From a virus: a stretch of DNA of 40,000 nucleotides. The position numbers were made by a program, and so were the translations under genes. This document shows, in pieces, positions 206 to 37,161 of this stretch. The stretch is taken from the IMG/VR virus record IMGVR_UViG_3300045988_116732, one strand, 5' to 3'. Below the pieces are notes generated by a model, which saw only the letters and a program-made list of their open reading frames with translations, ran no database searches and had not been told where the DNA came from. Each line of letters starts with the position of its first letter. The first letter of the stretch is position 1.

Positions 206-979
206 TTACTTTTCATACACCGATACATACTTACTAGCCGCTGTAATATATACTCCTGAAATGAGTTTATACATACTGCCGCCACCCACTTTAATAGGTC
301 CTTCTGCAATTGTAAAGACTTCATTCTTTGCCACTCTTCCATAAACAGCACTACTATCCCAGCTTGGTGTTTTTCTGACTGCCAAATTATCCACCAGTAC
401 TTTCACATACTTTTTCTTCTCCGGCAGTTGTACCGGTGCAACTGGCTTCGATTCAGCTGCTACATAATCAGATAAAGCGTATGCGATTGCTCTGCATACC
501 TCTTCAAACTTCTGTTCATACAGTGCTGCATCCGGATTATTCACAAAGCAAACCTCAATAAGCATTGCCTTCGCCTTTGTTTTACGGATAACATATAATC
601 CACTTCCGGCTTTTACTCCACGGTTAGTAAATCCAAGTGCTGCAATATGTTCACATACCTCTACAGCATCAGGATACTGTCTGCCCTTGTATGTATAAGC
701 CTCTACTCCATGTCCTGCTCTTGCAGCATCATTGTTAAGATGAATACTAATAAAATAATCCAAATCAGTTGCATTTGCCATTGCTACTACTTTCTGTAAA
801 TATGCTGCCTGTGTTGGTGCGGAATCTACTGTGCATGGTACCACCTGCACCCCCGCTGTTGTAAGAAGCTCTGTCAATCTGTTACAGACTCTTCTTGTTT
901 CTGTGCTCTCTGAAATAACTCCAATTGTTCCACTTCCTGCTCCAGAAAGTGTATGTCCTGCATTTAATCCAATTTTCAT
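206..979 (-). CDS. Endolysin: N-acetylmuramoyl-L-alanine amidase (Amidase_3 type) with C-terminal SH3b-like wall-binding domain
   Basis: 257 aa. Contains MKIGLNAGH, ISIHLNN..GHGVEAY and LIEVCFVNN, typical of zinc amidase_3. A linker (containing VAPVQ) precedes a beta-rich domain of about 65 aa. Adjacent to the holin. RBS GAAGGGA. Confidence 0.9.
   Translation of the reverse strand: MKIGLNAGHTLSGAGSGTIGVISESTETRRVCNRLTELLTTAGVQVVPCTVDSAPTQAAYLQKVVAMANATDLDYFISIHLNNDAARAGHGVEAYTYKGRQYPDAVEVCEHIAALGFTNRGVKAGSGLYVIRKTKAKAMLIEVCFVNNPDAALYEQKFEEVCRAIAYALSDYVAAESKPVAPVQLPEKKKYVKVLVDNLAVRKTPSWDSSAVYGRVAKNEVFTIAEGPIKVGGGSMYKLISGVYITAASKYVSVYEK
427..442. repeat. Copy 1 (15/16) of the dispersed palindrome GTTGCACCGGTGCAAC
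   Basis: GTTGTACCGGTGCAAC. In frame in the endolysin linker, read on the minus strand as GTT GCA CCG GTA CAA = VAPVQ. Confidence 0.9.
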
Positions 980-997
980 TTTATATCCCTTCTTTCT

Positions 998-1141
998 TTA
1001 GTCTAAGTCAATTTTTTCCATAATGGCTCTCATTTCAAGAACTGTCAGATACTCTTCCATTGCTCTAATCTGTATATTATATATATTTCTTGGACAAGTA
1101 GGGGTAAAATTCAGTTCTCCGGCATCCCACTTTTTAAGCAT
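998..1141 (-). CDS. 47-aa ORF directly continuing the frame of 1145..1441 after its TAG (separate small gene or read-through extension)
   Basis: The same frame as the upstream ORF reads TAG GCA ATG CTT... and gives MLKKWDAGELNFTPTCPRNIYNIQIRAMEEYLTVLEMRAIMEKIDLD, ending at TAA 998-1000. AAGGA lies 9 nt upstream of ATG 1141. The ORF is below the 60-aa cut-off of the ORF track. Confidence 0.4.
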   Translation of the reverse strand: MLKKWDAGELNFTPTCPRNIYNIQIRAMEEYLTVLEMRAIMEKIDLD

Positions 1142-1144
1142 TGC

Positions 1145-1441
1145 CTATAATCCTTTGTATCTGATATCAAGCTGTTTGTATTCTGCTTTAAATCTCTCCT
1201 TATAGTCATTGCTCTTCATTAAAACAGATGTTGCCGGCAGTTTGCTTTCGTCATATTTCCGGTATGCATCTTCAAAGATTTCTTTAGGGGACCAGCTTTC
1301 ATATCCATCCGGATATTTTACCAGATACCCTTCTTTCTTCGGGTTCTCATTTTCCGGTATTTTCCACCCACGGTAATTGTTATAATCACCCAGGTTCATT
1401 TCCTTTGCTTCAATGATTTTTGTTCCCACATACTTTTTCAT
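1145..1441 (-). CDS. Conserved small phage protein in the lysis cassette (function unknown), terminated by TAG
   Basis: 98 aa, MKKYVGTKIIEAKEMNLGDYNNYRGWKIPENENPKKEGYLVKYPDGYESWSPKEIFEDAY. Non-repetitive, globular-looking composition. Packed tightly between holin and endolysin. Confidence 0.65.
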   Translation of the reverse strand: MKKYVGTKIIEAKEMNLGDYNNYRGWKIPENENPKKEGYLVKYPDGYESWSPKEIFEDAYRKYDESKLPATSVLMKSNDYKERFKAEYKQLDIRYKGL

Positions 1442-1443
1442 CT

Positions 1444-1908
1444 CTATTCTTCCTCCTTCTCTTCTGTCTTTGCAACCTCTTCCACCTGCGATTTCAGATT
1501 TTTCAACAAAGGTAATAAAAATGGCGGAACCGGTGCACCTATATCCTTGATATTCTCCAGAATACTGATGATTTCATTACATATAATCCATATGGCTACT
1601 ACGCACGCTATAAGAAATGTTATTGGCATTGTGATTCCGATTGTGGCAGCAGCATACTTCAGTAACTGGTCAACAATGGCTCCAACCACTACCAGAAGCC
1701 ACATGGAAATCTTCTTTGCAATTCCCCGGAATCCCTTATAGGAATCTACTCTCTGGTTACGATACTTTGATGCGAAAATACCTGTTGCATAGTCAATAAT
1801 GTTGCATGCCACCAATAACAATACCGGTACATACAAGATGCCAAGCAGGGATGATAAGAATCCTGTAACCGCTGTTATGATTGCTTTAATTGTGTTTGTG
1901 TTGTTCAT
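1444..1908 (-). CDS. Holin (phage_holin_4 / TcdE-like family)
   Basis: 154 aa with 3-4 hydrophobic helices (GFLSSLLGILYVPVLLLVACNIIDYATG, MWLLVVVGAIVDQLL, ITFLIACVVAIWIICNEIISILEN) and a charged C-tail. Lies upstream of the endolysin. Confidence 0.85.
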   Translation of the reverse strand: MNNTNTIKAIITAVTGFLSSLLGILYVPVLLLVACNIIDYATGIFASKYRNQRVDSYKGFRGIAKKISMWLLVVVGAIVDQLLKYAAATIGITMPITFLIACVVAIWIICNEIISILENIKDIGAPVPPFLLPLLKNLKSQVEEVAKTEEKEEE

Positions 1909-1909
1909 G

Positions 1910-2968: not shown

Positions 2969-2970
2969 TC

Positions 2971-3960
2971 CTATTCTCCTTTCGGATAGCCTATAGAATC
3001 TATTACATTCTGAAGACTATTAAATAATTCTAGTGTTTTTTCATAATAATACTTTGCTGAATTTTTATCTCCGGTAGCGTAATTTTTTGCTTCCGTTACA
3101 CTACTCGCTGCTCCTTTCGCACTGTTTGCTGCTTCCGTTGCACTTCCGGCCGCTCCTGCGGCACTGTTCTTCGCTTCATCTGCATATCCACTAGCATCTG
3201 TCGCACTGTTCGCTGCTCCTGTTGCACTGCTTGCCGCTCCTTTCGCACTGTTTGCCGCTTCCGTTGCACTTCCGGCCGCTCCTGCGGCACTGCTTGCCGC
3301 TCCTGCGGCACTGTTCTTCGTTTCATCTGCATATCCACTAGCTTCTGTTACTGACTGGTTTATTAAAGTTATTGCATCATCTGCCTGCTGCCTCAGTGTT
3401 TCCTGCATACCTGATATCTCATTCTGATACTCCTCAAGAGCTGTTGCTTTCTCGGTAAATCCGCTTTCCATAGCAGATATATTCCTCTCTGCGTTCTCCG
3501 AAAGTGTCTTGTACTGTTCTGCCTGGTTGCAATAGTCTTCTGCCTGAGCAACCTGCTGCACCAATGATTTGTATTCATTTTGAGATTCAATGATATTCGG
3601 GTCCAGAATCTTGTTATATACATAGATTACAAACTCCGGCGAAGTAATAACTGCCCCATCCTGCATAGACAGCTCTATCTGTCCAATACATTCGCCCAAC
3701 ACATTAATGGTCTGTGTCGTGACTTCGTACTGTATCTCAGAGCCATCTATTACACAATCGTTGTAGCAAACTTTACCATCTGGCTTCACGATGCTTACTG
3801 CTGCCACTAATACATCCGACAAGTCGTATATCTTTCCGCTCTGCATAAGTGTAAAATGCAGGCTTCTTGTCTTTGTATCTCCCTGTCTTACAGAAATCCG
3901 GGGGCGTGTCCGTTCATGATCCAGGTCAAGTCGCATATTATTTACGATATTATTCCTCAT
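2971..3960 (-). CDS. BppU-N-like receptor-binding/fibre protein with Ala/Ser-rich repeat stalk
   Basis: 329 aa. The N-terminal ~120 aa (ISVRQGDTKTRSLHFTLMQSGKIYDLS...ITSPEFVIYV) resemble the BppU N-terminal domain. A coiled segment follows, then tandem ASGYADE.KNSAAGAA...SAKGAASS repeats. Confidence 0.7.
   Translation of the reverse strand: MRNNIVNNMRLDLDHERTRPRISVRQGDTKTRSLHFTLMQSGKIYDLSDVLVAAVSIVKPDGKVCYNDCVIDGSEIQYEVTTQTINVLGECIGQIELSMQDGAVITSPEFVIYVYNKILDPNIIESQNEYKSLVQQVAQAEDYCNQAEQYKTLSENAERNISAMESGFTEKATALEEYQNEISGMQETLRQQADDAITLINQSVTEASGYADETKNSAAGAASSAAGAAGSATEAANSAKGAASSATGAANSATDASGYADEAKNSAAGAAGSATEAANSAKGAASSVTEAKNYATGDKNSAKYYYEKTLELFNSLQNVIDSIGYPKGE
3096..3350. repeat. In-gene tandem duplication (126-nt unit, second copy carrying a 21-nt internal duplication)
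   Basis: gctcctttcgcactgtttgc.gcttccgttgcacttccggccgctcctgcggcactg occurs at 3110 and 3236. ttcttcg.ttcatctgcatatccactagc.tctgt occurs at 3167 and 3314. Confidence 0.9.
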
Positions 3961-3980
3961 AGATAACCTCCTTCGCCCTC

Positions 3981-4023
3981 ATTATATAAAAAAGAAATAG
4001 GGGATTTCTCCCCTATTTCGTCT
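3981..4023 (-). promoter_or_regulatory. Putative late promoter 2: AGACGAAATAGGGGAGAAA - 18 nt - TATAAT
   Basis: On the minus strand the 19-mer is at 4023->4005 and TATAAT at 3986->3981, followed by GAAGGAGG and ATG 3960. The same 19-mer, spacing and -10 box occur at 24305->24263. Confidence 0.55.
3988..4019 (-). terminator. Intrinsic terminator at the end of the giant gene
   Basis: 11-bp perfect stem, GAAATAGGGGA (3994-4004) with TCCCCTATTTC (4009-4019), and a 4-nt loop. On the minus strand it is followed by TTTTTT. It overlaps the TAG stop at 4013-4015. Confidence 0.7.
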
Positions 4024-20098: not shown

Positions 20099-22072
20099 CT
20101 ATACTGACGTAGAGTTTCTAGTTGCATGCGCCGCCTGGCTTGTTAATGAGCCATTGCTATTCCTGTTAAGCACCGACTGGCTCTGCGCCATAGGTTCTTC
20201 TGCCTGCTGCATTGCAATCTGTGCATTTCCCGCTATTCTTTCTGCATAATTCGTTGTTCCTCCGCTCGACATATCTACTGCCTGTGCCAGTGCAATAGCC
20301 TGCTGCTGCATCTGTAAGTACAGGTTGTAATATGTCTGGGATTTATTTAATCTCTGCTTCACCTCATCTTTTCCATCGAAGTCCATCATATCCAAACATC
20401 CGATAGCCATTTCTGCATTCTGCGGATTAAAAAATCCAAGGTTGTAGAATTGTAATGCAAGCTGATTCTGTGTTTCTCTGGTGTATGCGCTCTGCTTTGC
20501 TGGTACAACCTTAACATCGAAAATAGGGACTCTTTCTGACTGTGCCTGTCCAAATCCGGTATCCATTGGCTGTCCTTTTAATGTGCTATTGTCAAACGTC
20601 ACATAGTCTGTCTGTCCAGTTTCTCCGGTAATTCTGAATTCCCTCGGCTCATCGTAAAACTGTCTGATAAGCTCAATCACCAGATAGCATATCTTAGTAA
20701 ATGCTCTATAATCTGCTCTGTTTGCATCCCTAGACAATTTGCCGGACGCTTCCTGGAGACTGGCAATTCCGCTCGCTGAAGTAACATTAGAGGTCTGTCC
20801 CTGTGCTGCCGCTGTATTGCCAGAAGTATCCTTCAGTTCTTCGATTTTATTATTCAAAATGGTTTCATAAATGCCCGCCATTGGTGTCGATGTGATCTGT
20901 CGAAAAGCATCCTCTCCCAGATTTCCGTTAAAATGCACAAGTGATTTTGAAAAATCGCAAAACTCCTTTTCATTCAGCCCCACATCGTCTCTGACCGCCC
21001 ATCTTGGCTTTGCCAGTGACAATCCATTTTCAAGAATACCCTGCTGCATCTTATCTATGTATGCCTGTGTATCTTTCATGACATCCACATATCCAAATCC
21101 GCAGACACTGCTCTCGATTGGAAACAATACATCAAACTCAAATGGATATCGTCCATGATCATACAGCCCTGTATATTTTAATTCCTCGTCATTTTCTGTC
21201 GCATAGAGCACTTTTCCATTGCAGAATTTGCAATAATGCAGCACGTTCTTTCTTTTAATCAATCCATTATTGTCTTCAAGTACAATCGTTTTTTTATAAT
21301 ACCAGTCTACAACCGCAACCTTCTCTGTATTATCTTCCGCATCCGACTTTATGTACTGTGTAAGACTGATATCACTACCTGCCATTATCTCCTTATCTGG
21401 ATAAGCAGCCTTTATGTCCTCTACGTCTTCCATGGATACATAGAATACATTCTTCGACCTCTGAATATCTTTTACTCCTGGTTCCCAGAAAAGATTCATA
21501 ATGTCGACATTTTTAATTGATATGTCGCCTAATCCATTGTCTTTCGAACCATCCCAGAATACGCCTGTTACACAAGTTCCATTTTTTAATTTATACCAGC
21601 CGCCAGCTGAATACGTCTCTTCAAATTCATTTCGTTCCAGTATAACCGGTATGATTTCTGATAAAGCCTTAGCTGCTCTTTCATCATTCTTTTCTCGTGG
21701 AAGCACATTTGCTTCTGGAAAATTGTCCATGATGTCAGCATGCTTATTGGCAAGTGCGTTGAAAAGCCATGCAGACCGTGGTTCTATTCTTTTTTCTGCT
21801 TCCTCTTCCTGTTCTTTTCTTGCATAATCCCAATGTCTTAACCTCCACCATTCCTCGTTTTCCACAATTGTATTTTCAAGGTTCTTTTTTCCGGCATGAT
21901 ATTTTCTCAATACTTCTGCTGCTTCTTTCACATCATCATCCGTGATAGCATCTACCGTCTGCTCTTCCTGCATCTCTTTTTCTTCTGATTCCGTCTGAAT
22001 TAATGTGTCCTGCTGTTCTTTTTCCTGTTGCACCGGTGCAACTTCTGTTATTTTTCCTTTTTTGTAAGCCAT
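20099..22072 (-). CDS. Portal protein
   Basis: 657 aa, immediately downstream of TerL. Size and position are typical. Acidic N-terminal extension containing VAPVQ. Confidence 0.8.
   Translation of the reverse strand: MAYKKGKITEVAPVQQEKEQQDTLIQTESEEKEMQEEQTVDAITDDDVKEAAEVLRKYHAGKKNLENTIVENEEWWRLRHWDYARKEQEEEAEKRIEPRSAWLFNALANKHADIMDNFPEANVLPREKNDERAAKALSEIIPVILERNEFEETYSAGGWYKLKNGTCVTGVFWDGSKDNGLGDISIKNVDIMNLFWEPGVKDIQRSKNVFYVSMEDVEDIKAAYPDKEIMAGSDISLTQYIKSDAEDNTEKVAVVDWYYKKTIVLEDNNGLIKRKNVLHYCKFCNGKVLYATENDEELKYTGLYDHGRYPFEFDVLFPIESSVCGFGYVDVMKDTQAYIDKMQQGILENGLSLAKPRWAVRDDVGLNEKEFCDFSKSLVHFNGNLGEDAFRQITSTPMAGIYETILNNKIEELKDTSGNTAAAQGQTSNVTSASGIASLQEASGKLSRDANRADYRAFTKICYLVIELIRQFYDEPREFRITGETGQTDYVTFDNSTLKGQPMDTGFGQAQSERVPIFDVKVVPAKQSAYTRETQNQLALQFYNLGFFNPQNAEMAIGCLDMMDFDGKDEVKQRLNKSQTYYNLYLQMQQQAIALAQAVDMSSGGTTNYAERIAGNAQIAMQQAEEPMAQSQSVLNRNSNGSLTSQAAHATRNSTSV
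22027..22042. repeat. Copy 3 (exact) of the palindrome GTTGCACCGGTGCAAC
   Basis: In frame at portal codons 12-16 (KITEVAPVQQEKE). Confidence 0.95.
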
Positions 22073-22083
22073 CTCTCATCCTC

Positions 22084-25507: not shown

Positions 25508-25536
25508 AATATACCACTACCATATTCAGTTTTCAA
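25508..25536 (-). promoter_or_regulatory. Sigma-70-type promoter: TTGAAA - 17 nt - TGgTATATT
   Basis: On the minus strand the -35 is at 25536->25531 and the extended -10 TGGTATATT ends at 25508. It lies 25 nt upstream of ATG 25482. Confidence 0.55.
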
Positions 25537-25550
25537 TGTCCGATTTTATT

Positions 25551-26359: not shown

Positions 26360-26649
26360 TAAGCAAATCCCTCCGTCTCTCCGCATTCATACCATGTATT
26401 CCATGGTTTATAATTGCCGTGCTTGTAAACTTTTCCGCTCAGCGAATTCTCTGCAATCATAAGAATGTACATATCATCCTCTGCCAGTCCGTTCTTCTTG
26501 GCCAGATTATAAATATCTTCAAAAGTTAATGTCTCTTTCTCTTCCTCTGTAGGCATTAATTCCAGGCATTTAAAGGTTTCATTCTCGCTGTGGAAAAATA
26601 CTCTTATTATGTCTGCTTCAATTAACTCTTCATTTTCTACTGGTTTCAT
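26359..26649 (-). CDS. Small acidic protein, function unknown
   Basis: Start moved to ATG 26649 (RBS GGAGGG; ATGA overlap with the upstream stop). Sequence MKPVENEELIEADIIRVFFHSENETFKCLELMP... Confidence 0.6.
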   Translation of the reverse strand: MKPVENEELIEADIIRVFFHSENETFKCLELMPTEEEKETLTFEDIYNLAKKNGLAEDDMYILMIAENSLSGKVYKHGNYKPWNTWYECGETEGFA

Positions 26650-27794
26650 TCTGCATTCCCTCCATTCTTCTGTATCTGCTCTATTCTCCAGCGTATGCTT
26701 GTTAATTCTTCCAAGCACTTCTCCAATTCCCGGTTTTCCCAGAGGCGGTCCAGCTTCTTAATGCTGGCGCTCACTGCTGCTGCATAACCTCTTAATACGT
26801 TTTTATCTAAGCCTGCTGCCGCCGGAGCTTCCTCTGTAGCTTTTTCTTCCTGTACTTCTTCCGGCTCATTGTCCACAACTTCTCCGGAAAGCACCTCGCA
26901 TTCTGTTTTTTCAACGTTTTCCGGTTCTTTTGGTACGTTTTCCGGTTCTTTTGGTACGTTTTCCGGCTTTTTGATAACGCTTTCTGGCTTTTCAGTAACA
27001 TTTTCCGGTTGCACCGGTGCAACTTCCGGCTTTTCATATGCAACCGGCATATCTGCTATCGGAGCAAATACCTCTCTGACCTTTTCCACATACTCATCCA
27101 TGCTCAAGGTCTGCTTTTCATTACTCCTTACTGCCAGGATGTCCACCGGCTGTCCTTCTCCCTTGAAGGATGTGAATACCTTTCCGATTCCCTGTGGCCG
27201 GGAAGCCAGCACTGCGATTCCTGATGGCGCCAGAATACTCTCAAGCTCTTCTGAATCTCCAGTTTCTTTCCACTTAAGCAGTTTTTTAAATATCTCCGGA
27301 TTGTCTTTTGCATACTGGAAGATAGCCTTCTGGCTTAAATCCATATCCGCCTGCTGCACATCCTCGCCTTCAATGGCTACTTCTACCGGTGATATGGCTT
27401 CCTCTTCCCTTACCTCTGCCTTTACTTCTGCAATCTCTTTTCTGGTCATTTCCGGAGATATGAGGTCTACTACCTCAATCGGAAGGGTGAGCATATCCTG
27501 GAGCTTCGCCACTCCATACCCTTCGTATTTGTCCTGAAGGCGGTCAGAGTAACCGCCCTCGCTGTATCTGTCATTTATGGCTATGTACCTCGATACAATG
27601 TCTTTGGAAAGACCATATTCTGCCTTTGCAAATTCAGCTACTGTACTGTATCCGGATGATGCAAGGATATCTGTGTCTCTTGCCTTTTTCAGCAGGTAGC
27701 CGGTTCTTACGAAGCCTGCTGCCTGATTTGCCAGCTCCGTGTCCAGAGCCTGCTTGAACTGTTCATAGTTTTCTATATTCCTTAATTCTTCCAT
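26646..27794 (-). CDS. Putative DNA-binding protein (N-terminal HTH-like region, ParB/KorB- or DUF3102-like by eye) with PEN(V)-heptad repeats
   Basis: Start moved to ATG 27794 (RBS GGAGGTG; avoids overlapping the PcfJ-like gene). N-terminal region GYLLKKARDTDIL...YSTVAEFAKAEYGLSKDIVSRYIAINDRY. C-terminal half carries PENVTEKPESVIKKPENVPKEPENVPKEPENVEK. Contains palindrome copy 4. The family assignment is tentative. Confidence 0.7.
   Translation of the reverse strand: MEELRNIENYEQFKQALDTELANQAAGFVRTGYLLKKARDTDILASSGYSTVAEFAKAEYGLSKDIVSRYIAINDRYSEGGYSDRLQDKYEGYGVAKLQDMLTLPIEVVDLISPEMTRKEIAEVKAEVREEEAISPVEVAIEGEDVQQADMDLSQKAIFQYAKDNPEIFKKLLKWKETGDSEELESILAPSGIAVLASRPQGIGKVFTSFKGEGQPVDILAVRSNEKQTLSMDEYVEKVREVFAPIADMPVAYEKPEVAPVQPENVTEKPESVIKKPENVPKEPENVPKEPENVEKTECEVLSGEVVDNEPEEVQEEKATEEAPAAAGLDKNVLRGYAAAVSASIKKLDRLWENRELEKCLEELTSIRWRIEQIQKNGGNAE
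26917..27000. repeat. 21-bp tandem repeat, four units (two identical), coding PENVPKE-type heptads
   Basis: ttttccggttcttttggtacg occurs at 26917-26937 and 26938-26958, with diverged units at 26959-26979 and 26980-27000. The next unit position (27001-) begins ttttccggtt and then runs into the palindrome. Confidence 0.9.
27008..27023. repeat. Copy 4 (exact) of the palindrome GTTGCACCGGTGCAAC
   Basis: In frame (KPEVAPVQPENV) in the HTH/heptad-repeat protein, abutting the 21-bp tandem array. Confidence 0.95.
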
Positions 27795-27795
27795 G

Positions 27796-29943
27796 TCACA
27801 CCTCCATAAAATCACTTTCCAGTGCATCTACCAGCATGGTTCCCTGTAATCTTCCATGCCATATCAGCTTCTTTTCTCTTCGAAGCTGACCATAATTTTT
27901 CTTTCTTGCCTTATCACTTTTTTCTGCCAATGCTGCATCCTCTTTTGAAAGGTTTTTCTTCACCCATTGCTGCCATTCTTTCAAAAATGGCATTGCATCC
28001 TCAAGGTCTGCATAGGCTTCATTTAATACTGATTTCTTCTGTCTGATATTGCCGCCCGGCTCTACCTCCAGTGTGTACCATGGTGTGTCCGGTGCTTCTG
28101 TCTTTCTAAGGAAAAGCAGATATGTTTCCTGAATATCAATGCGCTGGAAGTATATGTCACAGGTGTGTATGCAGTGTTTTAATGCCATGCCCTCCACATA
28201 GATGTCTTTTATTCCGGTTGGGGCAACGATGCAGTATTTATCCTCCTGATACTCATACTTTTTCAATGTTCCTTCCTGCATCAGCTTTTCCGCTTTTTTA
28301 AAGGTCTTTTTCTTCTCCTCTATCTCTGTGCCTTTCTTCAACATATCTTCCTGGAGCACCAGCTCATTATGTGCCACGGTCAGGTCCTTTGGCCGGATTA
28401 ACATACCGTTTGTCATATCCGTCTTTCTCTTTTCCAGCATGTTTATGTAATCCTTCCAGTCCATCCAGATGTCGGATAATGCTCTCTTTCTTACCGCCTG
28501 CTGCTTTCTCAAGTAATTAGCCGCCTGCTGCACGCTGACATATTGAAGGATACTGCAGTCTGCTCCGTCCGCTCCTGCTTCTGCAAGCGTCTTAATATCT
28601 TCATCCCTCCATACAGTATTTGCCTTTTTCTCGTCCTGAAGCCATAGAAGCTCATATCTCTTTCCATTCATCTTTTTCAGGCGATTCAGTCTTGCCTTGT
28701 CAAGCTGCAGTGCCTTTATAAGTTCTGTCTGCTCCTCGTCTATTAACTCTCTGTACCAGTATTCGCTCTGCATCAGCCCTGTTCCCATTGCGTAAAGCCC
28801 TGCCTTGTATGCTTTTTCAATCAGTGGATTTTCTTTTTCCCTCTTCATGAAGTAAATCGGTTCTCCTTTATAGCCATACTTGACCGCAATATTATAGGCA
28901 GTGTTTGTGTTTTTCAGCAGAGCAGATAGATTTCTCTTGTAGATTTTTTCATAATTCCCATAATATATGTTTACTCTGTCCTGTCTTCTCCAGCACTTTC
29001 CTTTCAGTTTGAAGTCCTCATAGCGGTATTCCTCCAGCCCTTCATCTGTGAAAAGTATCCTTTTTGTCTCACGGATTGATAAGCCTGTCTCTCCTACATG
29101 GAAAGATGCTTCCGTGTCCGCCCTTGTACATTGGAATGTTCTTTCCACGATTCCATTACGGTATCTCTGCAGCAAGATGGCAGTGCCATAGGACCAGATA
29201 AGATTTCTTTTTTTCTTCCTGGAAACATAGATTATCTTTTTTCCGCAGTGCGGGCATTTTTCCCATTCATTATGCTTCGGTTTTTTATTTATTTGGACTT
29301 CGCAAAGGCATCCGGTACAGTAACCTGTCTCTGCGTCTGCTCCATTATAAAAAATATAATGGTCGCTGAATGCTTCTGTTTTCCAAAATTTTTCAAATCC
29401 TTCCGGCAGTTTTTTGGGAACATCCTTCATGGCTGCGTCCCACGCATCCATCAGCCTTTTTGCCTTTTCCTCTTCCTTGTCCGACTGTATTTTTTTCTGC
29501 CATTCGATTGCCCCCTCTATCCCGTTTTTTTCCGTCTTAAGCAGTGCCTTTATCTCTGCCTTTCCAGCCGGATTCAGGTAATACATTTCGTCTGAATTGT
29601 AATACAACTCCCACCAGTTTTCGTCGTCCAGGTTATCTATCCTTGCTGTCCGCCATTTGTATGAGCCGTCTTTCTGCCTTTCTCTTGTGATATAAGCCCC
29701 GTCTTTAAAGTCAATAAACACATCCCATTTCGGTTCTGTGATTCCCTTTTTCACATCATCTGACCGGCATATTGCAATTTTTAAGTATTTACCAAGATTC
29801 TGGCACCGGCACACATAGGCATACCATTTTTTATTTAATCCACCCCTGTATCTTCTTACTTTTTTTCCCGGCATCTTCGCCCATTCAGTCATGGCTGGTG
29901 TGGCGGGAAGTCTTCTCAGCTTATTCAACTCATTCTTTTTCAC
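27796..29943 (-). CDS. PcfJ-like protein
   Basis: 715 aa. The C-terminal region EGMALKHCIHTCDIYFQRIDIQETYLLFLRKTEAPDTPWYTLEVEPGGNIRQKKSVLNE matches the PcfJ-like domain pattern. Internal CxxC...CxxC zinc-ribbon (YCTGCLCEV...CPHCGKK). Confidence 0.65.
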   Translation of the reverse strand: MKKNELNKLRRLPATPAMTEWAKMPGKKVRRYRGGLNKKWYAYVCRCQNLGKYLKIAICRSDDVKKGITEPKWDVFIDFKDGAYITRERQKDGSYKWRTARIDNLDDENWWELYYNSDEMYYLNPAGKAEIKALLKTEKNGIEGAIEWQKKIQSDKEEEKAKRLMDAWDAAMKDVPKKLPEGFEKFWKTEAFSDHYIFYNGADAETGYCTGCLCEVQINKKPKHNEWEKCPHCGKKIIYVSRKKKRNLIWSYGTAILLQRYRNGIVERTFQCTRADTEASFHVGETGLSIRETKRILFTDEGLEEYRYEDFKLKGKCWRRQDRVNIYYGNYEKIYKRNLSALLKNTNTAYNIAVKYGYKGEPIYFMKREKENPLIEKAYKAGLYAMGTGLMQSEYWYRELIDEEQTELIKALQLDKARLNRLKKMNGKRYELLWLQDEKKANTVWRDEDIKTLAEAGADGADCSILQYVSVQQAANYLRKQQAVRKRALSDIWMDWKDYINMLEKRKTDMTNGMLIRPKDLTVAHNELVLQEDMLKKGTEIEEKKKTFKKAEKLMQEGTLKKYEYQEDKYCIVAPTGIKDIYVEGMALKHCIHTCDIYFQRIDIQETYLLFLRKTEAPDTPWYTLEVEPGGNIRQKKSVLNEAYADLEDAMPFLKEWQQWVKKNLSKEDAALAEKSDKARKKNYGQLRREKKLIWHGRLQGTMLVDALESDFMEV

Positions 29944-30479
29944 CGTACCTTCCTCCCTTTCACATCATAATAGGTGTCCGGCAGGTACTTTTTTCCGTCT
30001 ATCGGATACTCTGCGCATTCTGTAATTTCGCCACTTTTGTCCTCTTTTATCAAAAAAACAGTGTCTCCTTTTCTGCCTGCTGCCACCGGGCTTCTCCCTC
30101 GCACGATCACATATCCGTCTGATGCTATCCCTTTGTTTCTCACGACAGAATCTGACTTCATGTCCGGATGATTTACCAGCCATATGACGCCTTCCCTTAT
30201 CAGTTCCAGCTTTGTAAGCTCCTTGATAAGTCGTATTTCCGGAGCGGATATCCTTGTGTTGTATCCATCTTCATCAATGTTGCCTGACAGCTCCACAATG
30301 AAGTAACGCCCATTTCTGTAGTAATTCAGCACATCGAGCGGGTTATCCGTGGCATGGAATCCATCTTTTGCACAGTGCGCCTTGTCTTCCCGGTACCATA
30401 CCCCAGGTTCATACTGGAAGGTTCCTTTTCCCATGGTGCAGGTCAGGTCTTTATTAAATCCCTTGTATGCGTATCTCAT
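29940..30479 (-). CDS. Conserved phage protein, function unknown
   Basis: 179 aa, MRYAYKGFNKDLTCTMGKGTFQYEPGVWYRED..CAKDGFHATDNPLDVLNYY. Overlap-coupled to its neighbours. Confidence 0.65.
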   Translation of the reverse strand: MRYAYKGFNKDLTCTMGKGTFQYEPGVWYREDKAHCAKDGFHATDNPLDVLNYYRNGRYFIVELSGNIDEDGYNTRISAPEIRLIKELTKLELIREGVIWLVNHPDMKSDSVVRNKGIASDGYVIVRGRSPVAAGRKGDTVFLIKEDKSGEITECAEYPIDGKKYLPDTYYDVKGRKVR

Positions 30480-30973
30480 TTTGTGCCTCCGTAATAAGTC
30501 CTGATTGTCTTCTTTCGCTCTGCTAAATTAGGAAATCCGATTGAAATTTCATGGTTGTCTGCTACTTTTGCCACTTCCTTTGCCTGCTGCACAATGCGTT
30601 TGTCTACCACCGCTTTTTCTTCAAATCCTTTTTCCAGTAAAATAGCCATATATCCTGCAAGTGAATGCTTCATTACTCCGGCACATACTTTTTCATTTGC
30701 AAGACACTCCTGACGTATTTCATCCACCCAGTCCATAAGCACTCCGGCAATCTTTAAATCTTCTGATTCCACTTTCAATCTTCCGTGTGCGGCGGTACAT
30801 GGTGTTGCCAGTTCTTCCATTTCACCTTCTGCATAATCCTCTGCATCTGCCTTATCCAGTCCATTTTCTTCTGCCAGCACTATGAGGGATGCTACATCTC
30901 CCTCTTCTTTCAAGCCTGCTGCCGCTTTGTTCAATTCTTCTACTGAGTTTAATTCGCCAAATTTTTCAAACAT
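30476..30973 (-). CDS. Acidic early protein, function unknown
   Basis: Start moved to ATG 30973 (RBS AAGGAGGAA). The track's 31102 start adds an implausible N-terminus and overlaps the upstream gene. Confidence 0.65.
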   Translation of the reverse strand: MFEKFGELNSVEELNKAAAGLKEEGDVASLIVLAEENGLDKADAEDYAEGEMEELATPCTAAHGRLKVESEDLKIAGVLMDWVDEIRQECLANEKVCAGVMKHSLAGYMAILLEKGFEEKAVVDKRIVQQAKEVAKVADNHEISIGFPNLAERKKTIRTYYGGTK

Positions 30974-31041
30974 AATACTTACTTCCTCCTTCTGATTTTT
31001 CTCGGCACATAGAATATGTGCGATTTTAAAAAAAATAAAAT

Positions 31042-31248
31042 TCAAATTATTCCGCCACATGATTCTGGCAGTTCCCGGAGCGGACAGAAGTCCGGTCTGC
31101 ATGTAACATAATCTGTCACTTCTTCACCCATGTCAGGTGCTGTGCAATACAATGTTTTTTCTCCATATCTTGGCGGTTGCTCATCATCTACGAAATCGCA
31201 CATATCACACGATTCCGGCATATCCATAACTAATACTGCTTTAGCCAT
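31042..31248 (-). CDS. Small Cys-rich protein, function unknown
   Basis: 68 aa, PESCDMCDF...YCTAP...TCRPDFCPLRELPESC. Confidence 0.5.
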   Translation of the reverse strand: MAKAVLVMDMPESCDMCDFVDDEQPPRYGEKTLYCTAPDMGEEVTDYVTCRPDFCPLRELPESCGGII

Positions 31249-31507
31249 ATAATTCTTCCTTTCTTCCCTGCACTATCTCTTTTACCTTTTTCTCGTAAAA
31301 TTCTTCCGAAATATACTGATCTCTATGAGGGAACTTACTGTCTGTCAGAACAGCATAGGCTTCTGCCCAAGACAGACCTCCTCTGGCTGCTAATCTGTCT
31401 AATGTCTGTCCACAATGGTTTTTTAATGCCTGTTCTTCATGCGGTTTAATGATATTATAGGGAATATATTCCTTCCCTTTGTTTGTCATAATCGGAAATT
31501 CTTTCAT
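31241..31507 (-). CDS. Hypothetical early protein
   Basis: 88 aa. Overlap-coupled. Balanced composition. Confidence 0.55.
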   Translation of the reverse strand: MKEFPIMTNKGKEYIPYNIIKPHEEQALKNHCGQTLDRLAARGGLSWAEAYAVLTDSKFPHRDQYISEEFYEKKVKEIVQGRKEELYG

Positions 31508-31530
31508 ATACTACCTCTATTTCAGTTTAT

Positions 31531-31785
31531 CTATTCTCTTACAATCTCAATATAGATTTGAGAACGTATACCCTCATTGATTATTTTCAATTCGTGAATA
31601 TCAAAAATATCAAAACCATCAATGCAATCATAATCTTTGGTATACTTTTCTACAAACTCAGACGGTGAACCTTCAAAACAGTATTCCTCATCTATGCCTT
31701 CATCTATCCAAAACCATTCTAAAACAACCTTTGTTGTAGCATTTTTACGCTCTGCATATTGCTTTATAAATTCAATTAAACTCAT
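31531..31785 (-). CDS. Hypothetical early protein
   Basis: 84 aa, acidic, globular-looking. Confidence 0.55.
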   Translation of the reverse strand: MSLIEFIKQYAERKNATTKVVLEWFWIDEGIDEEYCFEGSPSEFVEKYTKDYDCIDGFDIFDIHELKIINEGIRSQIYIEIVRE

Positions 31786-31843
31786 ATTTTCCCTTTCTGC
31801 CTTTATTGGCTAAATTCTAATTTATTTTTTCTTTCTCTCCTTT

Positions 31844-32044
31844 CTACTTTCCCATCATATCTGGAAAATCTCTCCAGCTCTTTTCCGTTTCCAGTTCATC
31901 ATTTTTCTTCCGAAGTGTGCGATTTTCCGCTCTTAATTTATTATTTTCTTTCAAGATTTTTTGCAATTCGCAATCCTTTTTATGTTCACATCTTGCATCA
32001 GCTGAATACTCTGTGCATATTTTGCATAGATCTTTGCTTTTCAC
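31844..32044 (-). CDS. Small Cys-containing coiled-coil protein
   Basis: 66 aa. CKIC...C...C followed by a leucine-zipper-like LKENNKLRAENRTLRKKNDELE. Confidence 0.5.
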   Translation of the reverse strand: MKSKDLCKICTEYSADARCEHKKDCELQKILKENNKLRAENRTLRKKNDELETEKSWRDFPDMMGK

Positions 32045-32057
32045 TCGATTCTCCTTT

Positions 32058-32297
32058 CTACCATCCCGCTATTACATACCCCGACATTAATCCGTATTCA
32101 GGAACATTCCGCAGCACATATTCTATCCTCCTGCTTGTCTCACGTCCGGTATATTTCTCCCCATCCCATTCTTTCAATATCAATACATCCACTTTCTGCA
32201 AATCATCCTCATCCTTACGGATTTCAAATCTTTTTTCGTCATGAATTACCGCCTTAAAGTATTCTGGTAATATCCTCTTTTCTATAATTTTACGCAT
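32058..32297 (-). CDS. DUF3850 / ASCH-like (PUA-fold) protein
   Basis: 79 aa. ILPEYFKAVIHDEKRFEIRKDEDDLQKVDVLILKEWDGEKYTGRE...GYVIAGW matches the DUF3850 pattern (P.YF..V..G.K.FE.RK.D..F..GD.L.L.E......YTGR). Confidence 0.7.
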   Translation of the reverse strand: MRKIIEKRILPEYFKAVIHDEKRFEIRKDEDDLQKVDVLILKEWDGEKYTGRETSRRIEYVLRNVPEYGLMSGYVIAGW

Positions 32298-32550
32298 CTA
32301 CTCCACCGCCTTTCACAATTTCGATTGCACCTTTGTAAGCCCATCTTGCACCTTTTCCCGTAAGTGAATCTTCCGTGTCTGATATGCAATCTTCCAACTG
32401 CTTCACAACCTTTTCCGGGTCGTAGGCGGTCGGCTGTTTATCAATAACAGAAGCAATGCGTAAAAAATCTAAGCAATCCATGTCTTCGTTCTTTGAAATT
32501 GCTTTTTCTAAATCCGCTTTTAATTTATCCGCATCAATCAAACTTCCCAT
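32290..32550 (-). CDS. Hypothetical early protein
   Basis: 86 aa. Overlap-coupled on both sides. Confidence 0.55.
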   Translation of the reverse strand: MGSLIDADKLKADLEKAISKNEDMDCLDFLRIASVIDKQPTAYDPEKVVKQLEDCISDTEDSLTGKGARWAYKGAIEIVKGGGVDA

Positions 32551-32752
32551 CGTTCACTCTCCTTCCTACACAGCAATCCCAGCACTCATCCGGAGTCATC
32601 CCTGAATCTTCATAATCCTTCAGTTTTGCCAATGCTCCATATATCTTCTCTTGTACCTTCTGTGTTATCGTCTCGCCCACATGGAGCTGATTCCATTTAA
32701 CACCTTTCAAAGCCCAGTTGCCTTGTTCATCCTTAATTGTCAGTCTTCCCAT
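32534..32752 (-). CDS. Hypothetical early protein
   Basis: Start moved to ATG 32752 (RBS AAAGGAGAG). Sequence MGRLTIKDEQGNWALKGVKWNQLHVGE... Confidence 0.55.
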   Translation of the reverse strand: MGRLTIKDEQGNWALKGVKWNQLHVGETITQKVQEKIYGALAKLKDYEDSGMTPDECWDCCVGRRVNDGKFD

Positions 32753-32904
32753 CACGCTCTCCTTTCTCCGGAGCATGGTGTATATGTGTGGTCTTTTGTA
32801 CCTCTTCCAAAAAACGCTCCGCATTCTGTGTTTATGCGGTTTCCATGCCCCGGCTGTGACAGATTTATAAGTTCCTTCGTGTATATGTAAGTAATCTTGG
32901 AGGT

Positions 32905-33330
32905 CTAGACTTCTGCCGCCCTCTGGACGGTTGTTTTGCGGTTTATTTTAATGTTTCCTTTTTTAGTCTCGCTGACCATCATCTTGAGTTCACCGGTAAC
33001 CTCAACAGTTACCTTTTCTGCTATTCCATCCACCACATAGCCTGCTGCCTGATGAAGCATCTGCATCCTTGCATCTGTAAGCTCCGGTTTATTTCCTGAT
33101 CCGAAAAGCTCTTCAATTCTGAAATCTGCCTTTTCTTTCCGGTACAACCTTGATGTATAATTCTGCGCTTCATAACAATTGCATTGCTCTGTAGCCAGTT
33201 CGTTCAATTCATCCTCGTTGAATTCCTCCAGTGCCTCTACGAGCTTTATCTGACCGCAAAATCTGCAGGCTCCATTTTTTTCTACAGCCCTGTCCTTGTT
33301 TTCTTTCACTAAATTTTTCAGCATCTTCAT
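32905..33330 (-). CDS. Hypothetical early protein (Cys motifs)
   Basis: 141 aa, GACRFCGQ...EQCNCYEAQNY. Confidence 0.6.
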   Translation of the reverse strand: MKMLKNLVKENKDRAVEKNGACRFCGQIKLVEALEEFNEDELNELATEQCNCYEAQNYTSRLYRKEKADFRIEELFGSGNKPELTDARMQMLHQAAGYVVDGIAEKVTVEVTGELKMMVSETKKGNIKINRKTTVQRAAEV

Positions 33331-33674
33331 ACTCCTTTCTTGTATACCAGCTTCTCACGGTCCCATCCCGGGTACTGCTCTTTCAGGTAACATTCTGCAA
33401 ATTCAAGCATTTCAGCTCTTAATCCCTTGTTTCCGTTGTCCAGTAACTGGTGGTGACTCCGGCAGGCGGTTACACCGTTCTGTTCCACTCCAAGTCCACC
33501 CTGGCTCCGGTTCACCACATGGGCGATATCCCGGATGTGCGCCCCGAAGTCCTTCTTTACAAGCGGCCATCTGCCGCTTTTGCAGAATATGCAGGTGTCT
33601 CCGTCCCTGCTGATGATTCTTGCGATTGTGCCCTTGTCAAAGGTGCACGCTTTTGTTCTTCTGCTCTTGCTCAT
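33327..33674 (-). CDS. HNH endonuclease
   Basis: 115 aa. CIFCKSG...HIRDIAHVVNRSQGGLGVEQNGVTACRSHHQLLD (H-N-H with flanking Cys/His). Confidence 0.8.
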   Translation of the reverse strand: MSKSRRTKACTFDKGTIARIISRDGDTCIFCKSGRWPLVKKDFGAHIRDIAHVVNRSQGGLGVEQNGVTACRSHHQLLDNGNKGLRAEMLEFAECYLKEQYPGWDREKLVYKKGV

Positions 33675-34095
33675 AATGTTTCATTCTCCTGTCCTGCCAA
33701 TTGGAATACTTGGTGTGTTCCGCATAGCAAATATTTATATTGTGTGGTGCAAGCAACTCTGCCGCCCGCTGCCATAAAACACTGTGTTTCACCGGCTCTC
33801 CATTCTGCTTCCGGAAGTCTGCCGCTATCCAGTCATCTAGGAACCGGTTCACACCGGATTCCAGATATTTACTGTCTGTGAATATCTCAAGGTCAGACGC
33901 TCTTCTCATATGCTCCATAGCTTTTATCAGCCCCAGCAAGGCTATCTGATTGGCTGTGCCGGTGTCTTTCCCGGTCTCTTCCAGCGTCTTCTCTCCTTCA
34001 CTGGTATCTGCTTCCAGGATGCCACAGTAACACCCTTCCGCTTTCCGGAGTCCATGGTATGAAGTTCTTAAGTAAATCCTTGCCTCCATCTTCAA
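33637..34095 (-). CDS. RNase HI-fold protein (apparently degenerate active site)
   Basis: 152 aa. Alignable by eye to RNase HI: TANQIALLGLIKAME with TNNRMELMAAIVALE, EIFTDSKYLESGV with ILSTDSQYVRQGI, and PVKHSVLWQR with PVKNVDLWQR. The positions of catalytic D10 and E48 read R and A. Confidence 0.65.
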   Translation of the reverse strand: MKMEARIYLRTSYHGLRKAEGCYCGILEADTSEGEKTLEETGKDTGTANQIALLGLIKAMEHMRRASDLEIFTDSKYLESGVNRFLDDWIAADFRKQNGEPVKHSVLWQRAAELLAPHNINICYAEHTKYSNWQDRRMKHYEQEQKNKSVHL

Positions 34096-34862
34096 ATTCT
34101 CCTATCCAGTTTTTCCTCGGTATATCTCATGTAGGAATACCCGGTATACCGGTTTGTGCCGCTCCGGATGCTCTCCGGGACGATATAATATCCCGGTGTC
34201 GGTTTTGGTCCATAAATCAGCAGCTTTCTCACAGTCCACCGCCTGTATCTCTTTCTCTCCGGTTTTGGCCGGATTAAATTCCGGCTCGTGGAATAGCTGT
34301 ACTCTTCTTTGGTCAGCTTCCGGGGGAGACCTTTCTTCTTTCTCTCTTCCTCATCCGGCACCTTTGCCATATACTGGGCGAGCTGTTCAAATCCACCCTC
34401 TTCATAGAGGTTTGAGAAGAATATCCTTCCATGCTGCCAGCACTCCTTGATTAACACATCCGTGTCTGCTCCTCTGATTCTGTTCATGATCATGTGGATA
34501 TGTATTCCGCCTCTGGATCCGATTTCAATTACTCTCATCCATTTCAGTTCTGCTCCGAACTTTCGGTAGCGTCTTGCCAGCTTTCGCAAAACGTTATTCA
34601 GGTCTTCTTTCACTCCCTGCATATCCTTCCGCTCTCCCTTCCGGTATGTGAAGGTCAGCCAGAAGTCATTTTCTACAAAGTTCGCTTTTATCGTCCTGCG
34701 GATTCTGTTTTTCTTATTAATCTGATTCTGCAGTTCTATCTGCCAGGGGGAAGTTCTCTCTCTTACGGCTCTCTTCTCTCCCTTGGCTCCGTAATTTCCT
34801 TCCCACTTATACTCATACTCAATCGAGCCGGGGAAGTTATAAATATCAACACAATATGCCAT
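34092..34862 (-). CDS. HUH-superfamily rolling-circle replication initiator (Rep)-like protein
   Basis: 256 aa with the three Rep motifs in order: FWLTFTY (aa 67-73), GGIHIHMIM (H-U-H, aa 118-126) and LAQYMAK (Y..K, aa 161-167). Confidence 0.7.
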   Translation of the reverse strand: MAYCVDIYNFPGSIEYEYKWEGNYGAKGEKRAVRERTSPWQIELQNQINKKNRIRRTIKANFVENDFWLTFTYRKGERKDMQGVKEDLNNVLRKLARRYRKFGAELKWMRVIEIGSRGGIHIHMIMNRIRGADTDVLIKECWQHGRIFFSNLYEEGGFEQLAQYMAKVPDEEERKKKGLPRKLTKEEYSYSTSRNLIRPKPERKRYRRWTVRKLLIYGPKPTPGYYIVPESIRSGTNRYTGYSYMRYTEEKLDRRI

Positions 34863-34929
34863 AACCTTTGTCCTTAACTTTAATATTCCTAATCGAGTTG
34901 CGAAAACAGGTCTGAAATGCCCTGTTTTC

Positions 34930-34958
34930 TTGCAATTTTGCGGCTTTTATGGTATATT
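34930..34958 (+). promoter_or_regulatory. Plus-strand promoter: TTGCAA - 17 nt - TGgTATATT
   Basis: -35 at 34930-34935 and extended -10 TGGTATATT at 34950-34958. It lies in the intergenic leader of the minus-strand Rep gene and points away from any plus-strand ORF. Confidence 0.5.
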
Positions 34959-34964
34959 GTTCAT

Positions 34965-35035
34965 GCGGGAAGTTTGCAATTCGCCAAATTACTTACAACC
35001 CACTTGAGGACGTGCGCCACACGTTCTCTTTTTTT
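34965..35035 (+). ncRNA. Candidate ~70-nt antisense (countertranscript) sRNA opposite the Rep mRNA leader
   Basis: Bounded by the promoter at 34930-34958 and the plus-strand intrinsic terminator at 35006-35035. No credible ORF. Fully complementary to the minus-strand transcript between genes 35038..35571 and 34092..34862. Confidence 0.35.
35006..35035 (+). terminator. Plus-strand-specific intrinsic terminator
   Basis: Stem GAGGACGTG (35006-35014) with CACGTTCTC (35020-35028): 9 bp including one G-U pair, 5-nt loop, followed by T7 (35029-35035). On the minus strand no T-run follows. Confidence 0.6.
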
Positions 35036-35037
35036 AT

Positions 35038-35571
35038 CTATCCGGCAGCGTCCACCACCTGAATGTAGACATAATCTCCGTACATTTCTATCCATTTGTA
35101 ACAACCCTCCAGTGTATCTCTGTATACATCAATGCTTGTCCCGTTGCGGATGGTCTCGCCCCTTCCGTCTCCGTCCAGGTCGATTCCATCCCCGGTGTCG
35201 GTGAAATCGAAATATCCGATAAAGTCACCGATTCCGCCATCTTCTGTGACTGAATACATGATGATTGCCTTTCCCAGCCATTCTTCCTTACCGGCTACGG
35301 ACAATCCCTCTACCGGCCAGCTGCCGTTCCGGCACTGATTGCCCGTCCAGGTGTAGCAGGTGCATCTTATAAGAAAAGGCTCGCCAAGCGGATTCTCCTG
35401 CTCTACTGGTTGCACCGGTGCAACTTCCATATTTCCAACTGCGTTCATGGTCTTTGCGGTGAAGCTATTCACTTCTCCGGACACTTCCTGCGGCTCGGTC
35501 ATCCACATGGTGAAAAGGAACACTGCCACCGCTATTGCCATTAATATGATTACTCTGATTCTGTAGCGCAT
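35038..35571 (-). CDS. Membrane-anchored 3D-domain protein (MltA/RlpA-like double-psi barrel; putative cell-wall-acting)
   Basis: 177 aa. N-terminal TM helix VIILMAIAVAVFLFTMW, a linker with VAPVQ, then CTCYTWTGNQCRNGSWP..G.SVAG...LGK...DTGDGI...GTSIDVY, typical of the 3D domain. Confidence 0.7.
   Translation of the reverse strand: MRYRIRVIILMAIAVAVFLFTMWMTEPQEVSGEVNSFTAKTMNAVGNMEVAPVQPVEQENPLGEPFLIRCTCYTWTGNQCRNGSWPVEGLSVAGKEEWLGKAIIMYSVTEDGGIGDFIGYFDFTDTGDGIDLDGDGRGETIRNGTSIDVYRDTLEGCYKWIEMYGDYVYIQVVDAAG
35409..35424. repeat. Copy 5 (exact) of the palindrome GTTGCACCGGTGCAAC
   Basis: In frame at codons 50-54 (NMEVAPVQPVEQ), in the linker after the TM helix of the 3D-domain protein. Confidence 0.95.
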
Positions 35572-37159: not shown

Positions 37160-37161
37160 AA

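Follow-up and report, generated by a model that had tools for sequence, protein, structure and literature searches.

Here we analyse a set of dispersed palindromes in a phage genome, IMG/VR virus record IMGVR_UViG_3300045988_116732, together with the phage-encoded protein of 382 amino acids (aa) that probably binds them. The stretch of DNA examined (the window; 40,000 nt) ends at positions 39929-40000 with a repeat of its first 72 nt (1-72), and we therefore take it to be a complete circular or terminally redundant genome of 39,928 bp. The host of the palindromes is a temperate tailed phage, with late genes for TerS, TerL, a P22-type portal, capsid, holin and an Amidase_3 endolysin, and with lysogeny and early genes for an integrase, CI- and Cro-like helix-turn-helix (HTH) proteins, a rolling-circle Rep (assigned to PF23343 and phrog_3584), and RNase H-like, HNH, PcfJ-like and DUF7666 proteins.

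A palindromic word shared by unrelated genes

The genome contains four exact copies of a 16-bp palindrome, GTTGCACCGGTGCAAC, and a fifth copy, GTTGTACCGGTGCAAC, that differs from it at one position (Table 1); no further match to the 16-mer with up to three mismatches lies within the window. Five copies compare with an expectation of 0.07 in dinucleotide shuffles, 0 of 100 of which reached five, bearing out both the positions and the non-chance count reported in an initial annotation made from the sequence alone. Translation of the open reading frames (ORFs) likewise upheld its claim that the five copies lie in unrelated minus-strand genes and are read in one shared frame, GTT GCA CCG GTG CAA, giving the peptide VAPVQ (in one copy within the context MEVAPVQPV). 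When 50 nt of flanking DNA were aligned, the copies proved dissimilar save for one invariant A 5' of the word on the coding strand, and an origin as a mobile mini-repeat, of the kind of miniature inverted-repeat transposable elements, repetitive extragenic palindromes or Rickettsia palindromic elements (RPEs), was rejected on this ground. Around the circle the copies are separated by gaps of 11,022, 10,578, 4,981, 8,401 and 4,946 bp, the last of which had correctly been measured across the junction, where the terminal repeat closes the 39,928-bp circle. Five points placed at random on a circle of this size would all lie 4,946 bp or more apart with a probability of (1 - 5 x 4946/39928)^4 = 0.02 by our own arithmetic.

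The placement of the copies in linkers, as first proposed, is also supported. The copy in the endolysin (aa 179-184) falls between the Amidase_3 domain (3-166) and a C-terminal domain (189-252), and that in the portal (aa 10-15) precedes a P22_portal domain that begins only at aa 116. In the giant virion protein the copy lies upstream of the sole Pfam domain, PBECR5 (1222-1450), and in the 382-aa protein it occupies aa 258-262, inside a segment (248-327) that AlphaFold models with a predicted local distance difference test score (pLDDT) below 50.

Occurrence of the word in gut phages

The exact 16-mer was found in at least 120 IMG/VR stretches, mostly human-gut contigs of 20-40 kb and often with two or three copies per locus, and in at least 120 GTDB species-genome stretches, overwhelmingly from Lachnospiraceae (Roseburia, Acetatifactor, Lachnospira and Alitiscatomonas). 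Contigs of Alitiscatomonas aceti f_CCE and Gallintestinimicrobium propionicum Sanger_16 are among the carriers. Stray matches in unrelated phyla are at chance level, with about 139 expected for a 16-mer in 596 Gb (own arithmetic). Judged from the matching contigs, the word is not a genome-wide host repeat: genome matches number one to four per contig with phage-like spacing, and 63 of the 120 share DNA with viral loci. Two contigs binned as Moraxellaceae (L126) and Odoribacter splanchnicus (L184) also carry the word together with an ORF of the 382-aa protein's family, and 97% of L184 is covered by DNA resembling viral loci; both are probably mis-binned phage contigs and not evidence of other hosts.

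A complete relative of 64 kb, MT835488, carries four exact sites, including one inside the HTH gene. Portal genes of two unrelated families host a site, the P22-type portal of the window and a phrog_12 portal in locus L289, and sites recur near lysis genes. The observation that the word is always inside a gene holds for the genome analysed here but does not extend to its relatives, in which many copies are intergenic, immediately precede a ribosome-binding site and stop some 10-25 nt short of the start codon. Gaps between adjacent sites (n = 108 distinct gaps) have a median of 6.1 kb, and 11% of them are shorter than 3 kb, whereas random placement would give 47% (p < 0.0005 by simulation, for loci that are not independent), so that the sites are over-dispersed. 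A text search of the literature for the palindrome variants found neither.

Linkage of the sites to a protein family and its module

When all window proteins were compared by tblastn with 240 loci selected for the motif, the recurrent ones were the HTH-like 393/382-aa protein (60 loci), the PcfJ-like protein (57) and a 208/165-aa protein (46). Structural genes were found in at most 5 of these loci, and TerS, CI and integrase in 4-16 (a CI-like gene in 14). Operators of CI or Cro were rejected, as the cI-cro spacer (37159-37437) holds no copy and cI does not co-occur with the word, and a TerS pac site and an integrase att site were rejected because those genes do not co-occur with it either. 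A profile hidden Markov model (HMM) recovered the HTH family in 36 viral and 25 genome loci (120 of each, about 8 kb long), which by our own estimate is roughly what would be expected if every carrier has the HTH gene, given some four sites to a genome of ~35-40 kb and one of these inside the gene.

In the converse approach, homology to the 382-aa protein was the sole criterion for choosing 80 IMG/VR loci, whose identity to it spans 28-99%. The consensus site, TTGYRCCGGYRCAA, was present in 76 of these 80 loci, with 125 sites against 0.036 expected, and 72 loci carried a copy within the gene for the protein itself, 600-1,400 nt into the gene and in the same frame. Among ORFs of at least 300 aa, the VAPVQ frame is used by 49 of the 50 own-gene sites, and sites in other genes divide 27, 14 and 9 across the three frames, a set that is diluted by chance matches from unrelated bacteria. 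The frame preference is real, not absolute; VAPVQ is strongly preferred without being the sole tolerated frame that had been suspected.

The half-site also tracks the presumed recognition helix of the protein: KD[IT]VSRY helices occur with TTG[CT]ACC, a KTQVSRF helix with TTGTACC, and xST[TV]SRF helices with TTGCGCC (126 half-sites, none of them TTGCACC). The sites are thus linked to the 382-aa family and co-vary with it in hundreds of phages, which strengthens the case for the HTH protein that carries copy 4 in its own gene, the candidate named in the initial annotation. The family reaches beyond tailed phages. A 6-kb inovirus-like rolling-circle replicon of Clostridium butyricum with Zot and Rep genes, pCBU3 (NZ_AP019719.1, locus L324), encodes a true homologue of the HTH protein at 3888-4583, beside rep (hhalign 98.7%, E 4e-16); a scan outward from pCBU3 for more of this inovirus branch returned only the same element. 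Rep of phrog_3584 is present in a distant clade.

These loci also bear on the alternative that another protein of the module, whether the PcfJ-like protein, the 165-aa protein or the HNH endonuclease, reads the sites and that the HTH gene merely hosts a copy. The PcfJ-like gene is found in 77, the 165-aa gene in 70 and the HNH gene in 44 of the 80 protein-selected loci, HNH and Rep nucleases sit in the module, and regular spacing would suit periodic nicks by HNH, as in T5-type phages. We nevertheless consider this alternative rather unlikely, since the own-gene site is conserved in 72 of the 80 loci, the site variant goes with the type of HTH recognition helix, many loci lack HNH, and pCBU3 has the HTH homologue with the PcfJ-like gene absent from its possibly incomplete PLSDB annotation. 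Searches by sequence found no PDB relatives of the PcfJ-like and 165-aa proteins, and no functional study of PcfJ was found in the literature searched; PcfJ-like proteins also occur on conjugative plasmids, and their function is, to our knowledge, not known.

Table 1. Palindrome copies, the candidate binding protein and its module in the window
Feature	Position	Strand	Location or remark
Copy 1, GTTGTACCGGTGCAAC	427..442		Endolysin interdomain linker; hybrid of half-sites TTGTACC and TTGCACC
Copy 2, exact	11449..11464		aa ~803 of the 3286-aa polyvalent virion protein
Copy 3, exact	22027..22042		Portal gene codons 11-15, shortly downstream of terL
Copy 4, exact	27008..27023		Disordered-linker DNA of the 382-aa HTH protein's own gene; family-conserved position
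Copy 5, exact	35409..35424		Linker behind the transmembrane segment in an early-region protein of 177 aa
Gene for the 382-aa candidate site-binding protein (phrog_15077)	26646..27794	-	Modelled as helical HTH domain, small alpha/beta domain, acidic disordered linker, helical hairpin
Helix-turn-helix VAEFAKAEY-GLS-KDIVSRYIAINDRY, aa 52-77	27564..27641	-	Recognition presumably by the second helix
21-bp x 4.6 tandem array abutting copy 4	26914..27010		Encodes PENVPKE-type disordered-linker repeats
PcfJ-like 715-aa protein, zinc ribbon	27796..29943	-	Conserved upstream neighbour of the HTH gene
165-aa protein, third conserved module member	30476..30973	-	True start is the ATG at 30973
Rep / RNase H-like / HNH genes	34092-34862 / 33637-34095 / 33327-33674	-	Usual companions of the module

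Selection on the DNA word

Since the copies encode a common peptide, the protein-selected loci were used to look for homologues that carry VAPVQ in freely varying codons. None was seen: each [VILF]AP[VA]Q found there is encoded by the palindromic codons or by codons that deviate at one nucleotide, unrelated synonymous codons number 0, and the codons are fixed across 23 or more independent VAPVQ contexts, so that the DNA-word reading stands. The encoded peptide shifts among relatives (VAPVQ, VVPVQ, IAPAQ, ISPAK) while the dyad stays, and both half-sites vary symmetrically (TTGCACC, TTGTACC, TTGCGCC, TTTCGCC). Four symmetric variants can be told apart: the window's own clade and others about 50% identical have TTGCACCGGTGCAA, locus L265 has TTGTACCGGTACAA, 50-odd loci at 28-43% identity have TTGCGCCGGCGCAA, and loci L270 and L271 have TTTCGCCGGCGAAA. 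The consensus is TTGYRCCGGYRCAA, extended in the lineage of the window to GTTGCACCGGTGCAAC. These comparisons indicate that dyad symmetry is maintained across relatives and that selection acts on the DNA word rather than on the peptide, as had been proposed; fixed codons, a changing peptide and symmetric half-site evolution all point the same way.

A linker motif selected at the peptide level, with the DNA identity incidental, would account for the common frame and the linker positions of the window's five copies. Its probability is nonetheless close to nil, and we regard it as refuted by the fixed codons and the varying peptide; many copies, moreover, are intergenic or lie in other frames.

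Duplex half-sites, hairpins and modification targets

A palindrome may act as a duplex or as a folded single strand. Of 90 distinct sites, 17 (19%), including copy 1 of the window, are hybrids that join two different allowed half-sites; TTGTACC, the variant half of copy 1, is used by relatives as a bona fide half-site. In a hairpin the hybrids would place a C.A or A.C mismatch, or a G.T wobble, in the stem (-0.8 kcal/mol, against -5.2 kcal/mol for the exact 16-mer), and their orientation relative to the coding strand is even (8 versus 8), for which reason a strand-specific hairpin was rejected. Within any one genome all sites share a sequence, and their centre, CCGG, is self-symmetric and invariant. 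Hybrids, uniform sequence per genome and the symmetric invariant centre fit half-sites read in duplex DNA by a symmetric dimer better than they fit an RNA or single-stranded DNA hairpin.

The hairpin alternative takes two forms, an RNA stem-loop by ribosome-binding sites or a hairpin in displaced single-stranded DNA that primes the lagging strand during rolling-circle replication. It would agree with the intergenic copies that end 10-25 nt before start codons, with the neighbourhood of a rolling-circle Rep and RNase H, with a spacing of about 6 kb suited to repeated priming and with the fold of the exact 16-mer. We consider it decidedly improbable, given that the sites of a genome are identical and not freely compensated stems, that the supposed loop is self-complementary, that about one site in five is a hybrid with a mismatched stem on either strand equally, and that the stem is very short and has no U-tract and no Rfam match. 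No known RNA element or tRNA was found.

The word might instead be a restriction-modification or methylation target (core CRCCGGYG, ACCGGT or CCGG), its central 8 bp being, as we take it, equal to an SgrAI-type site, or else a sequence for in-frame modular recombination. Sites at domain and module boundaries in a shared frame would permit in-frame exchange, and a DUF3850/ASCH (PUA-like) domain is fused to some members of the HTH family. Both versions are highly improbable. Phages usually avoid restriction targets and do not conserve them, whereas the word is enriched here and conserved over 14-16 bp, and no methyltransferase was found among the Pfam-scanned window proteins, every ORF of at least 190 aa included; the modification target offered in the initial annotation is thus disfavoured, as is its miniature insertion repeat. 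A recombination hot-spot was rejected: when the window was compared with 36 related loci, homology did not break off preferentially at the sites (3 endpoints no more than 40 nt from one of the five; background ~0.35 per 80 nt).

The 382-aa protein and its family

The AlphaFold model of the 382-aa protein opens with a confidently predicted (pLDDT about 90) helical N-terminal domain containing a textbook HTH, followed by a small alpha/beta domain; next come an acidic disordered linker of about 80 residues, which holds the site's peptide, and a C-terminal helical hairpin. The family is large and undescribed, with 2,016 clusters at 50% identity, and its pairing with the site is widespread among phages of gut Lachnospiraceae. 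The peptide footprint of the site is present in 121 of 150 family representatives (50%-identity clusters), and the consensus KxEVAPVQP stands out in a linker that otherwise cannot be aligned. The window protein has no significant family match in Pfam (E <= 0.01), NCBIfam or PADLOC, and comparison with the PDB by sequence, including a profile HMM, returned nothing; a known defence system was rejected on the absence of a PADLOC match. A BFVD search returned solely unannotated members of the protein's own family. Foldseek with the N-terminal model gave 17 PDB matches at E < 10, none of them significant, among which are VirB-DNA (3w2a, 3vwb) and SopB-DNA (3mkz) complexes with E values of 3-6 and TM scores of 0.18-0.33, and hhalign against an approximate Spo0J sequence gave a probability of 0.5%.

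The 21-bp array that abuts copy 4, noted at this place in the initial annotation, does not belong to the conserved features of the system. It is absent from representatives of more distant clades, and, being a lineage-specific repeat of linker-coding DNA, it probably lies outside the cis element. Its copy number seems to vary, judging from protein lengths of 375-403 aa among close relatives.

Some relatives (L262, L270 and L272; 4 of 105 representatives) have a DUF3850/ASCH domain appended to the HTH protein at its C-terminal end, a fusion that may reflect a functional connection, perhaps with modified nucleic acids. The window encodes a stand-alone DUF3850/ASCH (PUA-like) protein of 79 aa (32058-32297, minus strand).

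Comparison with ParB-parS and other dispersed sites

The comparison with ParB-parS and KorB-OB made in the initial annotation holds only as a working analogy, one of dispersed intragenic palindromes. Like those systems, the sites described here are palindromes of the 13-16-bp class for which an HTH protein is the reader (a candidate in our case), they are indifferent to promoters, and several copies are dispersed over the replicon, often inside genes, with one in or beside the gene for the binding protein; the protein itself has a long linker leading to a C-terminal helical, dimerisation-like domain. Prophage N15 has dispersed SopB sites, and Bacillus subtilis has a parS inside spo0J. SopC and OB sites are short inverted repeats that are found at a single locus or dispersed (PMC5016525).

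At the level of the proteins the comparison is not supported; neither a ParB/Srx domain, nor ParA, nor detectable homology was found. No ParB-type family was matched by 12 diverse members at E <= 10, nor by 105 representatives, and unlike ParB the AlphaFold model begins directly with the helical HTH domain, without a ParB/Srx CTPase domain. A Pfam scan of window ORFs of at least 190 aa found no ParA, CbiA or Walker-type partition ATPase. Palindromic centromere-like sites, one of them inside the gene for the candidate binding protein in 72 of 80 relatives, are the ParABS feature that is present, whereas the partners here are PcfJ-like and 165-aa proteins and the element integrates into the host chromosome. 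Plasmid-type partition is unlikely, since ParA was not found, an integrase is present, and bacterial contigs as long as 600 kb contain relatives.

The parS-like character of the half-sites, which lie 2 bp further apart than in parS, bears on whether a host protein is recruited instead, a Lachnospiraceae ParB/Noc-like or other nucleoid protein, much as phi29 makes use of Spo0J and parS. The half-site GTTGCAC fits the degenerate parS half-site GTTNCAC, the motif is essentially confined to one host family, and in pCBU3 a perfect canonical parS, ATGTTTCACGTGAAACAT, lies at 3688-3705, 183 bp upstream of the distant homologue. The chromosomal parS consensus, TGTTNCACGTGAAACA (PMC7022226), is however absent from the window even at two mismatches. 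Recruitment of a host protein is improbable also because of the wider half-site spacing, because the variants track the clade of the phage protein, because a copy is conserved inside one particular phage gene, and because the matches in bacterial genomes are few per contig and often prophage-like. A second palindrome, GTAACGACGTCGTTAC, occurs shortly upstream of the HTH homologue in pCBU3.

Initiators with an origin in their own gene offer another comparison: lambda O with ori-lambda, and SPP1 G38P with oriL in gene 38 and a distal oriR. As in those phages, the site lies in linker-coding DNA between N-terminal DNA-binding and C-terminal domains, in a gene within the replication module, and SPP1 likewise has a second, distant site. 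Those origins, in contrast, are iteron arrays with an AT-rich region, one or two in number, whereas here a single palindrome occurs in five spaced copies, the 21-bp array is not conserved, and the separate rolling-circle Rep (PF23343, phrog_3584) is the likely initiator. HIP1 of cyanobacteria, an 8-bp word spread genome-wide, and the Rickettsia RPEs, mobile insertions of 100-150 bp with conserved flanks, share with our sites a palindromic word that is tolerated in coding DNA with a codon or frame bias; the sites differ in their length of 14-16 bp, their flanks without homology, their few copies per phage and their tie to one protein family. The protein family and the sites are new and their in-frame, evenly spaced deployment is distinctive, while the system resembles known ones with dispersed palindromes.

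A candidate system for marking the phage chromosome

We propose that the palindromes are probably duplex binding sites for a dimer of the 382-aa HTH protein, a reading drawn from comparative sequence analysis. The protein would read each palindrome as two half-sites; one site would be kept in its own gene, within disordered-linker DNA, and more would be seeded about every 4-10 kb around the phage chromosome, wherever the sequence is tolerated, in intergenic spacers or in linker-coding DNA in the benign V-A-P-V-Q frame. The protein is part of a conserved early-gene module with the PcfJ-like zinc-ribbon and 165-aa proteins, beside the rolling-circle Rep, RNase H and HNH. The multi-site complex would mark or organise the replicating chromosome, through loading, bridging or spreading of module proteins or through priming, and would act at the scale of the chromosome in lytic replication, not on individual promoters. 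We infer the identity of the binder, its dimeric mode and the function of the complex, the chromosome-scale role from sites that ignore promoters, are tolerated anywhere and are evenly spaced, and from a module that includes Rep, RNase H and HNH.

Several observations weigh against this proposal. The co-variation of site and helix is confounded by phylogeny, because it involves mainly two large clades, and the spacing and frame statistics are inflated by the phylogenetic non-independence of the loci. PcfJ-like and 165-aa proteins co-occur with the sites almost as tightly as the HTH protein, so that either could be the reader, and the N-terminal domain has no significant match to solved DNA-binding proteins or in Pfam, NCBIfam or PADLOC. 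The evidence for a role in replication or organisation consists of gene neighbourhood and position-indifferent sites. Finally, a second complete relative, Clostridium phage phiCs5676-1 of the cultured host [Clostridium] scindens (OR574845.1), in which the synteny Rep-RNaseH-X-PcfJ-HTH is found at 30141-34887, has the module with one consensus site (16073, in a lysis-module spacer) and an own-gene site decayed to a half-site; multi-site marking would accordingly not be obligatory. This phage also encodes a separate, annotated ParB-like protein (21701-22357).

A more specific version is possible but doubtful: that the protein belongs to a ParA-less, ParB-less chromosome-marking family, spanning tailed Lachnospiraceae phages to an inovirus-like replicon, with self-encoded sites at intervals of about 6 kb, and that its complex with the PcfJ-like protein organises or primes rolling-circle replication or shields the DNA. 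If true, phages would possess, in this marking system, a new class of cis/trans genome-organisation module. A very abundant 'dark' protein family of human-gut phages and its PcfJ-like partner would gain a testable role, a cognate site and natural specificity variants. The system would exemplify a regulatory DNA word threaded through coding sequence by way of disordered linkers and one benign frame, leaving a peptide footprint (VAPVQ or IAPAQ) in unrelated proteins. The regularity of about 6 kb points to a chromosome-scale role in replication, compaction or protection, which is hardly explored in temperate Firmicutes phages, and the consensus is a practical marker for finding such phages and prophages in metagenomes.

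Other features of the genome

The gene for the 3,286-aa virion protein (4013-13873, minus strand) makes up a quarter of the 40-kb genome. Its PBECR5 domain is a Barnase/EndoU/ColicinE5-RelE-like nuclease, a domain type that characterises the 'polyvalent proteins' found in phages and conjugative elements. A different inverted repeat, GCACATA-gaa-TATGTGC (31005-31021), is located in a T-rich spacer, some 30 nt ahead of the ribosome-binding site for the 165-aa gene, and could be an operator or terminator of the module operon. Between the Cro-like gene and the integrase, on the plus strand (37752-38636), lies a gene for a 294-aa multi-pass membrane protein with a His-rich N-terminus, for which no family match was found and which is probably a lysogenic-conversion (moron) gene. 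The genome junction carries a strong terminator-like hairpin (AAAAAGGCTGTAACCCTTGA...TCAAGGATTACAGCCTTTTTT).

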